64,000 nt of DNA. Origin: Acidobacteriota bacterium (GTDB taxonomy: Bacteria > Acidobacteriota > UBA6911 > RPQK01 > JAJDTT01). Under the pieces are notes generated by a model, which saw only the letters and a program-made list of their open reading frames with translations, did no database searches and had not been told where the DNA came from. Positions 35,353 to 50,366 of the stretch are shown here, one piece after another (position 1 is the stretch's first letter; every line of letters begins with the position of its first letter). The stretch spans positions 372,848-436,847 of the forward strand of contig CBDCUP010000010.1 of the NCBI GenBank assembly GCA_965222655.1, written 5' to 3'. The position numbers and the translations under genes were made by a program.

Positions 35353-36679
35353 ATGATTGATAACAAAACTATCCTGATTACCGGAGGTACGGGATCATTC
35401 GGCCGGAAATTCGTAGAGGTCGCTTTAGCCCGGTATCAACCGAAGAGATTGATCGTCTTCAGCCGAGACGAGCTCAAGCAGCACGACATGAGGCTCCAGT
35501 TCAACGATCCCCGTCTCGACTTTTTCCTGGGTGACGTCCGAGAGGTGAGGCGACTCGCCAGGGCCTTCGGAGCGGGGGTGGATGTTGTCCTCCACGCCGC
35601 TGCATTGAAGCAGGTGCCCGCCTGCGAGTACAACCCTTTCGAGGCCGTCAAAACCAACGTCCTGGGCGCAAAAAACGGGTCATCCGGTAAATGGGGAGGT
35701 GGGGACGTGGTTGGCACCTTCCGGATCCTAAATCTGCTCCCCGTTCGCTTGTCCATATAGTCGGCTGCAGTAGCAGAGGCCGTGGGAACTGTGGAAAACT
35801 CCGAGCGACATCGAAGCGGGCCAGCAAGCCCGTGATACGGAGTTTTCCAAGCGCTGTGCGAACGGTGGAAAAACAACTGCGAGCACTTGCCAGTTCTCCT
35901 CCAGAACTAGTTGTTTTTCCACGGTTTGCATAGTGCGGCAGTTTCCATGGCCTGCCTTTGACTGGCGGCACCTCCCCATTTACCGGATGAACCCAAAAAA
36001 CGTTGTCGATGCTGCTATCGATTGCTCCGTACCCAAGGTGATCGCTCTGAGTACTGACAAGGCGGTAAACCCGATCAACCTGTACGGGGCTACCAAGCTG
36101 TGTGCCGAAAAGCTGCTGGTCCAGGGCAACTCCTATGCTGGGGGAGAGGGATCCAGATTCAGCTGCGTTCGCTATGGGAACGTGCTGGGAAGTCGTGGCA
36201 GCGTCCTCCCTATCTTCCTGGCCCAGCGAAGTCGCGGAACGATCACTCTGACTGACCCCAGGATGACCCGCTTCTGGATCACCCTGGAGGAAGCCGTCGA
36301 GTTCGTGATCCGATGCACTCAGGTGATGCAGGGTGGTGAGGTCTTTGTCCCTCGTATTCCCAGCATGACGGTGTCGGATATGGCAACCGCACTCGCACCC
36401 GATTGTCTGATTAAGATAACCGGTATCCGACCCGGCGAGAAACTCAATGAGACCCTGGTTTCATGTGACGAAGCCCGTCGCACCCTGGCCCTGCCCGAGA
36501 TGTTCATCATCAAGCCGGAGCACCACCCCTGGGGCCACCTGGATTGGGATGGCGACACCATGCCCGAGGGATTCGAGTTCGCCAGTAACTCCAATGATCG
36601 CTGGCTCAAGCCCGAGGACCTTTTGCGTCTGGTAGGAAAAGATGAGGAAGAACTCAAACTTAGCTCTGCATGGGGGTGA
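35353..36679 (+). pseudogene. pseB: UDP-GlcNAc 4,6-dehydratase (inverting), interrupted by 317-bp MITE
   Basis: 35353-35676 + 36002-36679 = 333-aa [79 protein letters not shown]. Confidence 0.92.
35677..35993. mobile_element. 317-bp MITE, copy 1
   Basis: 25-bp TIR gggtcatccggtaaatggggaggtg / cacctccccatttaccggatgaacc (1 mismatch); 8-bp TSD caaaaaac (35669-35676, 35994-36001). Confidence 0.95.
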
Positions 36680-37946
36680 GCCTGTCCGCCAAACGGTTCT
36701 CCCCTACGGGACACACAGCATCGACGAGAGCGACATAGAGTCGGTCGTAGAGGTCCTTCGGTCAGGCTGGCTGACCACCGGACCCAAGGTTAGCGAATTC
36801 GAGCAGACCTTTGCCGAGTTTGTTCATGCGCCGCACGCCCTCAGTGTCAGCAGTGGGACCGCCGGCCTGCACGCCGCGATGTACGCCTTGGAAATCGGCC
36901 CCGGAGATGAAGTCATCGTTCCGGCGCTGACCTTTGCTGCTACCGCAAATGCTGTCGTCTACCAGGGGGGAACGCCGGTCTTCACCGATGTCGACCCCAG
37001 GACCCTGCTCCTGGATCCGCTTCAAGTCGAGAGGAACCTGACGTCGAGAACCAAGGCGATTGTGGGAGTGGACTATGCGGGCCAACCTTGCGACTACAGT
37101 GCCTTGCAGGATCTGGCCGAGCGTGAGGGTCTAGGTCTGGTTGCCGATGCCTGTCATTCATTGGGAGCTCGAGACCTCGGTCGACCAGTGGGAAGCCTCA
37201 GTCACCTCTCTGTCTTCAGTATGCACCCCGTCAAATCCATCACCTCAGCCGAGGGCGGAGTGGTCAGCACCTTCGACCCCGCCCTGGCCAACCGAATCAG
37301 GCTGTTTCGAAACCATGGGCTCAGCAAGGATCATCGTCAGCGGAACGAAGAAGGCTCCTGGTTCTACGAGATCAGTGACCTGGGCTACAACTATCGATTG
37401 AGCGACCTTCAGTGTGCCCTGGCGAAGAGTCAGCTTCGCAAACTACCCTCCTGGTTGGAACGAAGGAGATCCATTGCAAAGCTCTACGACTCGGCCCTGG
37501 CAGGTTGCGGCCAGGTTGTGCCCGTTCAGACCAGAGCCGGCGTCTCGCATGCACGCCATCTCTACGTAATCAGGCTGAGACTCGACCGTCTGAAAGTAGA
37601 CAGAACGGAGATATTCAAAGCTCTCCAGCACGAAGGAATCGGGGTCAACGTTCACTATATTCCGGTGCATTTGCATCCCTTCTACCGTCGTGTGTTGCGC
37701 ACTGGATCCGGACTCTGTCCAGTCGCCGAAACCGCCTACCAGGAGATCCTTTCCCTCCCGATCTTTCCGGCGATGACAGACCAGGATGTCGACGACGTAA
37801 TCCAGGCCCTCTTCAAGGTACTGAACGCCTATTCTCGGGACCGTTTCCAGCAGCTGAGTAAGAGCTTCGGGAGGGGCGACTCGAATCCTTCCCGCCCCTT
37901 CTCTCGGGATACGAGCAGGGCGGAGCGGATCCGAATAGGGTCCTAG
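36642..37946 (+). CDS. pseC: DegT/DnrJ/EryC1/StrS aminotransferase (PseC-type)
   Basis: LPYGTHSIDESDI, GWLTTGPKV, ADACHSLG, FSMHPVKSITSAEGG, LGYNYRLSDLQCAL, GVNVHYIPVHLHPFY. Confidence 0.88.
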   Translation: MRKNSNLALHGGEPVRQTVLPYGTHSIDESDIESVVEVLRSGWLTTGPKVSEFEQTFAEFVHAPHALSVSSGTAGLHAAMYALEIGPGDEVIVPALTFAATANAVVYQGGTPVFTDVDPRTLLLDPLQVERNLTSRTKAIVGVDYAGQPCDYSALQDLAEREGLGLVADACHSLGARDLGRPVGSLSHLSVFSMHPVKSITSAEGGVVSTFDPALANRIRLFRNHGLSKDHRQRNEEGSWFYEISDLGYNYRLSDLQCALAKSQLRKLPSWLERRRSIAKLYDSALAGCGQVVPVQTRAGVSHARHLYVIRLRLDRLKVDRTEIFKALQHEGIGVNVHYIPVHLHPFYRRVLRTGSGLCPVAETAYQEILSLPIFPAMTDQDVDDVIQALFKVLNAYSRDRFQQLSKSFGRGDSNPSRPFSRDTSRAERIRIGS

Positions 37947-48308: not shown

Positions 48309-48335
48309 CCCGGATCGAGAAAGGCATCTTTTCTG

Positions 48336-50366
48336 ATGGAAGGACTTCAGCTGCCTACGGCTAGCGCAGCGCCCGGAGCTCTCACCGCATCTTCGGACTG
48401 CCTGAGCCTGTATACCCTCTTTCATCTCAACCTGGCCTACTCATCAATCGAAGAGGAGCTTCGCCCCCAGGTCATCCAACGCTGCTATTGGCCACTGCTG
48501 GAGCTGACTCGACAGCTTCAGATTCCGTGTGGCATTGAGGCCTCGGGCTACACCCTCGAAGCAATCGCTGCCCTGGACCCTGGTTGGGTTGACGAGCTGA
48601 GAATTCTGACCACGGCGGGGTTGTGCGAATTCGTCGGCAGCGGCTACGCTCAGCTGATCGGTCCCCTGGTCCCCGAGAAAGTCAACGGTGTCAACCAACG
48701 TCTTGGCCGTGAGGTCTATGAACAGCTGTTGGGGTTTGCTCCCCGCCTCGCCCTGGTGAACGAGCAGGCCTACTCTGCCAGCATGGTGAGTCTTTACCAT
48801 CAAGCCGGGTACGAGGCCATCTTGATGGAGTGGGACAACCCGGCCTCCGCGCACCCAGAATGGGACCCCAGCTGGCACTACCTGCCCCAATTGGCGTGTG
48901 GACCAGGCGATGAGGAGATAGGTCTGATCTGGAACACCTCTATCGCCTTCCAGAAATTTCAACGTTACGTTCATTCCGAGATCGATCTGGACGAGTATCT
49001 GATCTATCTCCAGGGACACGCCGACCTCCATGCTGGGGCCTTCTTGCTTTACGGCAACGACGTGGAGATTTTTGACTTTCGGCCCGGTCGGTACCATACA
49101 GAGGCGCCTCTCAGCAGCAGCAGCAACGAGTGGACGCGAATATCCGAGCTGTTCCAGGTGTTGAAGCTAGACCCACGCTTCAGTTTCGCTTCACCCAGCC
49201 AGGTCCTGGACTTGATGGGAATGCCGGGATCCGGCAACCGACTCAGTCTGGAGTCGGCAGCCGAGCCGATTCCTGTCAAAAAGCAGAATAAATACAACAT
49301 TACCCGTTGGGCCGTCACGGGCCGAAACGATCTCGCAATCAACACGGCCTGCTGGCAATGCTATCGAGCTTTGGAAGAAAAGACTGCGCCCGGAGACGAT
49401 CTGTGGCGAGAGTTATGCTACCTGTGGAGCAGCGATTTCCGCACCCATATAAGCCCAAATCGTTGGGACAACTACGGCAAACGGCTTGCCGATTTCAAAC
49501 AAAGGCTCTCCATCCGAAAGCCGGCGAGGACCGATTCAGAAGAGAATACGTCCGCGACACACCCAAAGGCACGCCTTCCAGGAAGCATCATAGAAGAGCG
49601 GGGAAACCATATCATCATCCGCAGCGATCAGGTCCGGATTTCCCTGAATCGAAGGCGCGGTCTAGCCCTCGATCGTCTCGGATTCGGATCAGATGGTGAA
49701 AGCAATCTGGTTGGCACCCTCGCCCACGGTTACTACCAGGACATCGCCCTGGGATCGGACTGGTACAGCGGCCACGTGACCCTGGAGTGCTTCGGTCGCC
49801 CCAAGGTGACCGACCTTGAACCCGTAGAGCCGACGATCGAGGAATGTCCGGAGTGGGTGCAAGTCAAGGCAGAGGTTCCCACTCCTCTCGGTCCTGTTCG
49901 CAAGAGAATCAGGGTCTTCCTTGGAATTCCGAGGGTCGAGCTAAGCTACGACATCGATTGGCAAAAAGTTCCCATCGGGGCGCTGAGGATAGGCCACTTC
50001 ACCTTGAACCCTGAGGCTTTCGACCGTTCTCTGCTCTACTATCGGACTCATCTGGGGGGACGCGAAGAGGAAGAGTTCCATCTGAGCGGGACACAGGTGG
50101 ACCACACGGCTCCGGTTTCCTTCGGCGTCTCTGCACGCCATGCCGTCGGAATGACGGATGGTTCCGTCGAGTTCGGAGATGGCTCTGCCAAGCTGAGGTT
50201 GGAAGTCGACCAGGAGCAGGCGGCTCTGGTGGGAATGGTCATCTATCGGGAAGTAGACGATAGCTTCTTCTGTCGGCTGGCGCTCTCTGCTCAGGAAGTA
50301 GACGAAACCAGAAGGGGACGAACCGAAGTGTTAAGGATTCGGTCTACAATCGCGCTAAGCGCCTGA
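48336..50366 (+). CDS. Glycoside hydrolase family 57-like / polysaccharide-deacetylase-fold protein
   Basis: FHLNLAYSSI, CYWPLL, EASGYTLE, GSGYAQLIGPL, VNEQAYS, YGNDVEIF, WSSDFRTHI. Confidence 0.68.
   Translation: MEGLQLPTASAAPGALTASSDCLSLYTLFHLNLAYSSIEEELRPQVIQRCYWPLLELTRQLQIPCGIEASGYTLEAIAALDPGWVDELRILTTAGLCEFVGSGYAQLIGPLVPEKVNGVNQRLGREVYEQLLGFAPRLALVNEQAYSASMVSLYHQAGYEAILMEWDNPASAHPEWDPSWHYLPQLACGPGDEEIGLIWNTSIAFQKFQRYVHSEIDLDEYLIYLQGHADLHAGAFLLYGNDVEIFDFRPGRYHTEAPLSSSSNEWTRISELFQVLKLDPRFSFASPSQVLDLMGMPGSGNRLSLESAAEPIPVKKQNKYNITRWAVTGRNDLAINTACWQCYRALEEKTAPGDDLWRELCYLWSSDFRTHISPNRWDNYGKRLADFKQRLSIRKPARTDSEENTSATHPKARLPGSIIEERGNHIIIRSDQVRISLNRRRGLALDRLGFGSDGESNLVGTLAHGYYQDIALGSDWYSGHVTLECFGRPKVTDLEPVEPTIEECPEWVQVKAEVPTPLGPVRKRIRVFLGIPRVELSYDIDWQKVPIGALRIGHFTLNPEAFDRSLLYYRTHLGGREEEEFHLSGTQVDHTAPVSFGVSARHAVGMTDGSVEFGDGSAKLRLEVDQEQAALVGMVIYREVDDSFFCRLALSAQEVDETRRGRTEVLRIRSTIALSA

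Follow-up and report, generated by a model that had tools for sequence, protein, structure and literature searches.

A PseH-less nonulosonic-acid island among the flagellar genes of an Acidobacteriota bacterium, and the conserved cassette to which it belongs

How could a flagellar pathway of the pseudaminic-acid type operate without the acetyltransferase PseH? The canonical route to CMP-Pse5Ac7Ac in Campylobacter jejuni and Helicobacter pylori runs through PseB-PseC-PseH-PseG-PseI-PseF, and the question is raised by an island in a 64,000-nt stretch (the window) of contig C10 (CBDCUP010000010.1) from the 9.5-Mb genome of an Acidobacteriota bacterium. Across the island (35353-50366) the gene order is maf, pseB, pseC, a fusion of synthase and cytidylyltransferase (CT), a class III aminotransferase, a PseG-like gene, GT2(-TPR), a radical S-adenosylmethionine (SAM) gene and a GH57-like gene. 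Matches to Pfam and NCBIfam profiles and comparison with related loci reveal that PseH was never part of this island, which is a member of a widespread, conserved PseH-less cassette and no one-off. The synthase-CT fusion and the lack of an aldo-keto reductase (AKR) are peculiar to this genus, while the division of the system over two loci and a very rare radical SAM family are new here. On balance, we read the region as the nonulosonic-acid branch of a flagellin O-glycosylation island that probably follows a PseH-independent, 'Sfm-like' version of the pseudaminic-acid pathway.

The flagellar island and the absence of PseH

The island and maf are placed between fliD and flgL/flgK. The upstream neighbours (motA, a response regulator, flagellin, fliD and fliS-like genes) are all intact, and dus, flgL, flgK and flgN follow downstream; the island is therefore flagellar. 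Every gene listed in the initial annotation (pseB, pseC, pseG, synthase, CT, aminotransferase, radical SAM, GT2 and GH57-like) is recovered by Pfam or NCBIfam profiles far above chance (Table 1), with two adjustments. The GT2 domain stands, while the TPR part ascribed to the same protein is undetected by Pfam in the window and 'faint' in orthologues; the synthase and CT, listed there as two items, are both present as domains but belong to a single 579-aa open reading frame (ORF) without a SAF domain.

Among the canonical PseBCHGIF models, the equivalog thresholds are reached by PseB and PseC only, the cut-offs in bits being 407.75 for PseB (TIGR03589), 423.5 for PseC (TIGR03588), 93.1 for PseH (TIGR03585), 153.55 for PseG (TIGR03590), 340.25 for PseI (TIGR03586), 205.7 for PseF (TIGR03584) and 400 for NeuB. 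The SAF-less synthase part scores 185 bits with the NeuB equivalog and 179.4 bits with PseI, the latter match stopping at model position 275 of 327. A low-complexity linker of ~40 residues joins it to a CTP_transf_3 domain of the SpsF/KdsB type, which scores 19.7 bits with PseF. The fusion occurs only in this genus (G000, G001, G002, G004), and synthase and CT are two adjacent genes in all other phyla sampled.

No match to the PseH, Acetyltransf_3 or NeuD/PglD-type left-handed beta-helix (LbH) models is present on contig C10, and the sister islands likewise have no PseH, in keeping with the earlier observation that the island holds no GNAT-type PseH. The pseH profile search across the whole genome yields nothing at the PseH cut-off; the top match, at 51.7 bits, is a RimJ-type GNAT flanked by an amidase and a transporter. 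The large ORFs across 34.1-50.4 kb are all on the plus strand and abut or overlap, so that the island has no space for a further gene. Three same-genus Acidobacteriota metagenome-assembled genomes (the sister genomes), with island proteins 83-90% identical to those of the window, place this absence in time. In one of them (G004) maf, pseB (an intact 334-aa ORF), pseC, synthase::CT, aminotransferase, pseG, GT2 and radical SAM follow in the same order without interruption, and in a second (G001) the gene order is the same. The gap between pseC and the synthase is 25 bp in both, and the absence of PseH is therefore ancestral. A pseH remnant beneath the insertion sequences (IS) of the window was considered and ruled out: the IS5-type element there has simply inserted at a CTAG target within a short spacer, 25 bp long in the intact relatives, and the ribosome-binding site and ATG of the synthase are kept in the pre-insertion spacer.

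An ordinary Pse5Ac7Ac could still arise if N-acetylation were performed by an enzyme encoded elsewhere, either a housekeeping-type GNAT or an LbH protein at C20:16009-16647, with the extra genes of the island as passengers. The C20 protein is PglD/NeuD-like and, at 154 bits, lies slightly below the cut-off of 160.8; the genome holds nine Acetyltransf_3 matches, and SpsF-type CTs can take the place of PseF, as with FlmC of Caulobacter. However, no nonulosonate cluster surrounds the C20 gene, the best PseH-like match sits between its amidase and transporter without reaching the cut-off, the supposed passengers are syntenic with PseB/PseC in at least seven phyla, and the sugar of a studied Shewanella relative is mono-acetylated (PMC3765264). 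We consider ordinary Pse5Ac7Ac improbable as the product of this island.

The cassette across phyla and its second locus

A scan for the aminotransferase in ~186,000 species genomes gave 202 confirmed relatives, of which the best 80 loci were used for cassette counts. PseB, PseC, a short NeuB, CT and the class III aminotransferase stand in that order in 17 of these 80 loci. The 17 also carry a PseG-like gene (16/17), an AKR (13/17), an ATP-grasp gene (13/17) and a GH57-like gene (9/17, with several of the loci ending at contig edges). The ATP-grasp gene precedes the GH57-like gene in 13/17 related loci and in the sister genomes. Carriers belong to at least seven phyla, with Acidobacteriota, Chloroflexi, several Desulfobacterota lineages, Nitrospirota, Gemmatimonadota, Planctomycetota and Verrucomicrobiota represented, and those of Desulfobacterota include the isolate Syntrophorhabdus aromaticivorans UI. 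SAM methyltransferases (16), short-chain dehydrogenases/reductases (SDRs; 8) and thiamine diphosphate (ThDP) enzymes (4) occur most often among the 93 accessory ORFs that 16 related loci contain. No acetyltransferase family is found among the 25 commonest Pfam families of these ORFs, which makes the lack of PseH a family trait.

The most complete arrangement is that of L108, in which the order reads PseB-PseC-NeuB-CT-class III aminotransferase-AKR-(335 aa)-GT2-FkbM methyltransferase-radical SAM-transketolase N-transketolase C-SDR-ATP-grasp-GH57. L106 and L109 show this order in permuted form, again contiguous with PseB/PseC/NeuB/CT/aminotransferase/AKR. The set of aminotransferase, radical SAM and GH57-like genes that the initial annotation had singled out is conserved together with PseB/PseC and contiguous in all three loci.

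Comparison with the sister genomes also uncovers a gene that the window has lost. G001 carries, between its radical SAM and GH57 genes, a gene for a 423-aa ATP-grasp (L-amino-acid-ligase-like) protein, which in G004 is split by a transposase; at the equivalent junction of the window it is missing (Table 1). ATP-grasp domains were confirmed in orthologues of the lost ligase, and this amide ligase is the likely substitute for PseH. A further ATP-grasp gene is found on C22, in an intact operon (L101, 1338409-1346413) led by a phosphoenolpyruvate (PEP)-utilising enzyme with PPDK_N and mobile domains. Its further genes (C22:1338409-1343534) encode, one after another, an FkbM methyltransferase whose N-terminus is of the C2185-like_N type, transketolase N, transketolase C, an SDR and the ATP-grasp protein, and the same succession adjoins the cassette in L106, L108 and L109. 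When the contents of the island and C22 are combined, every part of an L108-type operon except the AKR is encoded over the two loci. The sister genomes have the island-type ligase only, and because they are without the C22-type copy, the C22 operon may be a horizontally acquired side-chain cassette. Its ligase may in turn have made the island ligase dispensable.

The proposed pathway and its nearest relatives

In the proposed pathway, PseB and PseC would convert UDP-GlcNAc to a UDP-4-amino-4,6-dideoxy sugar, the amine of which would not be capped by acetyl-CoA and PseH but would be left free or be amide-linked by the ATP-grasp ligase to a purpose-built small acid. The acid would be built by the ThDP enzyme (the split transketolase on C22), the SDR and the FkbM methyltransferase. 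The PseG-like hydrolase would release the sugar, the short NeuB would condense it with PEP, the fused SpsF-type CT would form the CMP-sugar, and Maf would transfer it to flagellin. More speculatively, the probable task of the class III aminotransferase is to transaminate the sugar in a keto form, with C8 as the likeliest position, as suggested by the CT-AKR/SDR precedent of EpaA/EpaB considered below. With similar reserve, the twitch-type radical SAM enzyme, which has a domain predicted to be nucleotide-sugar-binding-like, probably acts on a nucleotide-linked intermediate by oxidation or dehydration.

The closest studied relative of this arrangement is the Sfm system of Shewanella oneidensis MR-1, which has PseB, PseC and Maf with no clear PseH, PseG, PseI or PseF; flagellin modification there needs sfmABCDE, which encode a NeuB protein of 290 aa together with a ThDP enzyme, an SDR, a methyltransferase and an ATP-grasp protein (PMC3765264). 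The flagellin glycan there comprises a 274-Da nonulosonate with a single acetyl, plus 236-264 Da (PMC3765264). The two systems share a flagellar context with Maf, PseB and PseC, a ~290-aa SAF-less NeuB-domain synthase and the absence of a recognisable PseH. For the ThDP enzyme, SDR, methyltransferase and ATP-grasp protein, candidate counterparts sit at C22, of subfamilies other than those of SfmB and SfmD. The likeness of the window synthase to SfmA, found together with PseB, PseC and Maf, is one of published description, not of alignment. Unlike in Shewanella, the ThDP enzyme is a split transketolase and not of the acetolactate-synthase type, the methyltransferase is of the FkbM type, and the operon in the window is broken, with none of the ThDP enzyme, SDR, methyltransferase and ligase genes in the window and the second locus on C22 in their place. 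Present here and not discussed for Sfm are the PseG-like protein, the SpsF-type CT fused to the synthase, the class III aminotransferase, the GT2/radical SAM pair and the GH57-like protein. The Shewanella system fits an N7 that bears no acetyl and to which a built side chain is added.

The same comparison also accommodates a free 7-amino nonulosonate (Pse5Ac7N-type, 274 Da), in which the ligase would be an optional decoration and the ATP-grasp/GH57 and GT2/radical SAM pairs would come into play afterwards, with the flagellin-bound sugar or a second glycan unit as their substrate. Such a product sits uneasily with a ligase that ranks among the most conserved members of the cassette (13 of the 17 loci) and with the di-N-acylated sugar that is the substrate of canonical PseG and PseI. 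It would, in contrast, account for the Shewanella core of 274 Da with one acetyl and for the sfmE (ATP-grasp) mutant, which shows only a partial mass loss and retains reduced modification and its filament (PMC3765264), as well as for the lineage of the window, which is without the island ligase yet has kept the rest of the gene order. The timing of ligation cannot be read from sequence, and we hold this reading, with a ligase that is an optional decoration, to be unlikely.

Two further systems help to place the island. With the canonical route it has in common the first two enzymes, orthologous at equivalog level, and the succession of UDP-sugar, hydrolysis, PEP condensation, CMP activation and Maf transfer. 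It differs in having no PseH, a PseG-like protein under the cut-off, a SAF-less synthase at half the PseI cut-off, an SpsF/KdsB-like CT and four or more extra conserved enzymes. In Acinetobacter baumannii prophages, EpaA (CTP_transf_3 fused to an AKR) and the SDR EpaB turn Pse5Ac7Ac into 8-epi-Pse5Ac7Ac (PMC12053666). In both cases a CTP_transf_3 CT is physically tied to a partner that modifies, or here would modify, the finished nine-carbon sugar, and EpaA/EpaB is the best precedent for late tailoring; the partner here is a class III aminotransferase, however, and no AKR is present.

Several observations weigh against an Sfm-like pathway assembled in this way. The C22 locus is assumed to act together with the island, while its ATP-grasp protein is just 58% identical to the island ligase of G001 and has no counterpart of its type in the sister genomes. 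The AKR of the cassette was not found in this genus, the best match in the window's genome being 33% identical. Assayed functions within the cassette are limited to PseB/PseC homologues, and the tailoring roles are all assigned from neighbourhood and fold. Moreover, Shewanella without the ThDP enzyme, SDR or methyltransferase loses all modification (PMC3765264), which is a poor fit to a purely late side-chain role for these enzymes.

The initial annotation had proposed a differently N-acylated or otherwise modified nonulosonate. That direction agrees with the best reading, the lack of PseH being ancestral, but the ligase, the wide distribution, the C22 locus and the extent of decay had escaped it. 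More specifically, and only tentatively, we suggest a PseH-independent nonulosonate branch, defined by GT2, FkbM methyltransferase, twitch radical SAM, ThDP enzyme, SDR, ATP-grasp and GH57-like proteins plus a CT-linked class III aminotransferase, that may make an undescribed flagellar sugar with a methylated hydroxy-acyl group, built de novo and amide-linked at N7, a radical-SAM change at the nucleotide-sugar stage and possibly a third amino group. Such a branch would be modular, and workable from two loci. Flagellar and surface nonulosonic acids govern filament assembly, phage recognition and immune recognition, and their diversity far exceeds the three textbook pathways. The cassette is found in many phyla with assigned reactions for PseB and PseC only, and could account for non-acetyl N-acyl groups and perhaps extra amino groups. 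Since the island here is a damaged copy, the sister genomes or cultured carriers are better suited to experiments.

The aminotransferase gene always adjoins the CT. The enzyme carries the invariant pyridoxal-phosphate lysine motif AVFAKAM, and its solved PDB relatives include glutamate-1-semialdehyde (GSA) aminomutases and aminoglycoside (sugar) C-6' aminotransferases. Literature searches offered nothing useful on glutamate-1-semialdehyde-type aminotransferases in pseudaminic or nonulosonic contexts, on Shewanella SO_3266-3269 or on triamino nonulosonates. Two paralogues, at C16:57079-58419 (54% identity) and C18:198102-199493 (51%), lie outside sugar clusters; their contexts were inspected for clues and, as stand-alone genes, are uninformative.

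In all contexts examined the GT2 gene precedes the radical SAM gene, mostly adjacent to it and with the FkbM methyltransferase between them in L108; GT2 could possibly extend the sugar. The radical SAM gene truly starts at 46637 and is split 17 codons on, just before the CNYHCDYC motif, by a miniature inverted-repeat transposable element (MITE). Its Pfam match is weak in the window fragment and 7e-11 in an intact orthologue. The family is rare, with 28 clusters in a collection of 5.8 billion proteins, and 27 homologues keep both CNYHCDYC and four invariant downstream Cys. A C2185-like_N domain (PF22674) forms the C-terminus of its members and also the N-terminus of neighbouring FkbM methyltransferases; a separate match to KijD1, a sugar C-methyltransferase, probably corresponds to this C-terminal domain. 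A model built from the 27 homologues (pLDDT 90.8) has BlsE, anSME, sactisynthases, MoaA, BtrN and SpeY as its nearest folds. The predicted fold, the CX3CX2C motif and four auxiliary Cys are those of twitch/SPASM radical SAM sugar enzymes (BtrN, SpeY, BlsE, AprD4), known members of which use amino-sugar, cyclitol or nucleoside-sugar substrates; in contrast to these, the protein here stands at TM-scores of 0.3-0.55 and 13-18% identity and has the extra C-terminal C2185-like_N domain. The four invariant extra Cys fit a twitch-type auxiliary cluster and, with the modelled fold, suggest that the enzyme probably performs redox or dehydration chemistry on a nucleotide-linked sugar. A role in replacing the AKR, following BtrN/BtrS logic, was also considered and is not supported, as the radical SAM gene co-occurs with an AKR in L029, L106 and L108.

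The GH57-like protein shares its Pfam clan with CE4/PIG-L-type de-N-acetylases. A model from seven orthologues (pLDDT 69) matches 1k1x, the GH57 4-alpha-glucanotransferase of T. litoralis, by Foldseek at 9e-21, followed by GH38 mannosidases. E143 and D242, invariant in the seven orthologues, align by profile to E123 and D214 of the T. litoralis enzyme, which we take to be its nucleophile and acid/base, respectively. The three-domain match and the invariant Glu/Asp pair point to a real GH57-type catalyst, in line with the (beta/alpha)7 barrel of that family, and no small deacetylase; the full three-domain GH57/GH38 architecture and the retained pair rule out the CE4/PIG-L-type assignment. Activity on alpha-glucans appears unlikely in this setting.

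Mobile-element damage and neighbouring features

The operon appears to be inactivated at four or more places in this genome (Table 1). Interruptions of maf, pseB and the radical SAM gene, a 3.3-kb IS pair after pseC and the loss of the island ligase leave it unable to work as written. The IS256-type element in maf has 28 near-identical full copies in the genome, and the two nested IS have 12 and 8. The MITE, with terminal inverted repeats of ~24 bp, is present in 221 full-length copies genome-wide (median identity 96.6%), and neither of its insertions in the island is found in the sister genomes. In a tblastn search with the island proteins, the fragment ends on either side of the pseB break recur hundreds of times in the genome. 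A repeat-rich genome with 221 MITE copies and dozens of IS copies invites misassembly, and the interruptions might on that account be chimeras at repeats, or unfixed variants of a mixed population with a functional operon. However, the ends are clean throughout, six separate insertions lie within 30 kb of the flagellar region relative to G004, and both MITEs are bordered by perfect 8-bp target duplications of host gene sequence, which speak against chimeras because misjoins do not create them. We regard such an artefact as highly improbable. The copy of the island found here was damaged recently, in a genome that mobile elements have overrun.

Table 1. Positions of genes, gene fragments and insertions in the window
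Feature	Position	Strand	Evidence or remark
maf (motility accessory factor, putative flagellin nonulosonate transferase), N-terminal part	31741..32152	+	Collinear with the intact 600-aa maf of G004; broken after 32152
IS256-type insertion sequence inside maf (transposase ORF 32469-33653)	32153..33905	-	Not at that point in G004, G001
maf, C-terminal part, MptE-like domain	33906..35289	+	PF01973 9.5e-41; NF050051 PseD-like 1e-29, positions 228-564 of 640
pseB, 5' part (UDP-GlcNAc 4,6-dehydratase, inverting)	35350..35676	+	TIGR03589 163 bits, model positions 1-107
317-bp MITE in pseB	35677..35993		Terminal inverted repeats GGGTCATCCGGTAAATGGGGAGGTG; 8-bp target duplication CAAAAAAC
pseB, 3' part	35994..36679	+	TIGR03589 277 bits, model positions 106-322
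pseC (UDP-4-amino-4,6-dideoxy-L-AltNAc transaminase)	36642..37946	+	TIGR03588 448.5 bits, above 423.5
IS5-type element (CTAG target) with 1739-bp IS nested at 37993-39731	37942..41271	-	pseC-synthase spacer; copy boundaries and flanks
NeuB-family synthase (residues ~20-280) fused to SpsF/CTP_transf_3 cytidylyltransferase (residues ~326-560)	41282..43021	+	579-aa single ORF; PF03102 1e-61, PF02348 1e-27
Class III (GSA-aminomutase-like) aminotransferase; alternative start 43093	43009..44400	+	PF00202 1e-39; best NCBIfam PRK06209, 228 bits
PseG-like UDP-sugar hydrolase	44435..45481	+	TIGR03590 135.1 bits (cut-off 153.55), model positions 2-278 of 280
GT2 glycosyltransferase, helical TPR-like C-terminus	45481..46584	+	PF00535 2e-32
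Radical SAM gene, first 17 codons	46637..46688	+	Reading frame and orthologue alignment
317-bp MITE, second copy, in radical SAM gene	46689..47005		Target duplication ACTTTTTA, 8 bp
Radical SAM gene, remainder: CNYHCDYC cluster motif, four conserved auxiliary Cys (twitch-like), C-terminal C2185-like_N Rossmann-type domain	47006..48308	+	
Junction without the 1.24-kb ATP-grasp gene of the sister genomes	48309..48335		blastn against G001: window 48308 to L021 15071, window 48314 to L021 16314
GH57-like three-domain protein	48336..50366	+	PF03065 1e-15

Two larger insertions lie upstream of the island. The first, of 2.47 kb (19672-22142), sits between motA and the response-regulator gene and is not in G004; it has 66% GC against ~57% in its surroundings, carries a 720-aa ORF on the minus strand and has 24 near-identical genome copies (99.9%), one of them beside the aminotransferase paralogue on C18. 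The second, of 3.65 kb (27580-31230), lies between the fliD/fliS-like genes (~27.2 kb) and maf. It encodes a group II intron-type reverse transcriptase at 28389-29795, identical to one at C20:8611-10017, and at least 27 genome matches span half or more of its length.

The genome holds another nonulosonate locus, of ordinary type, at C1:256-268 kb (L103), with a NeuB bearing a SAF domain, a NeuC-type UDP-GlcNAc 2-epimerase and a DegT aminotransferase; it adjoins Wzz/GNVR chain-length genes and is broken by a transposase. Directly upstream of maf, a small conserved ORF of 148 aa (31370-31816), without a domain match, has counterparts before maf in the sister genomes and, at 36% identity, in L036, which comes from another family within the order. 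At the other end of the island, the tRNA-dihydrouridine synthase ORF (50402-51706, minus strand) has 434 aa and, if the first ATG is used, an N-terminal extension of ~100 residues before the Dus domain, so that the ORF call is probably over-long.

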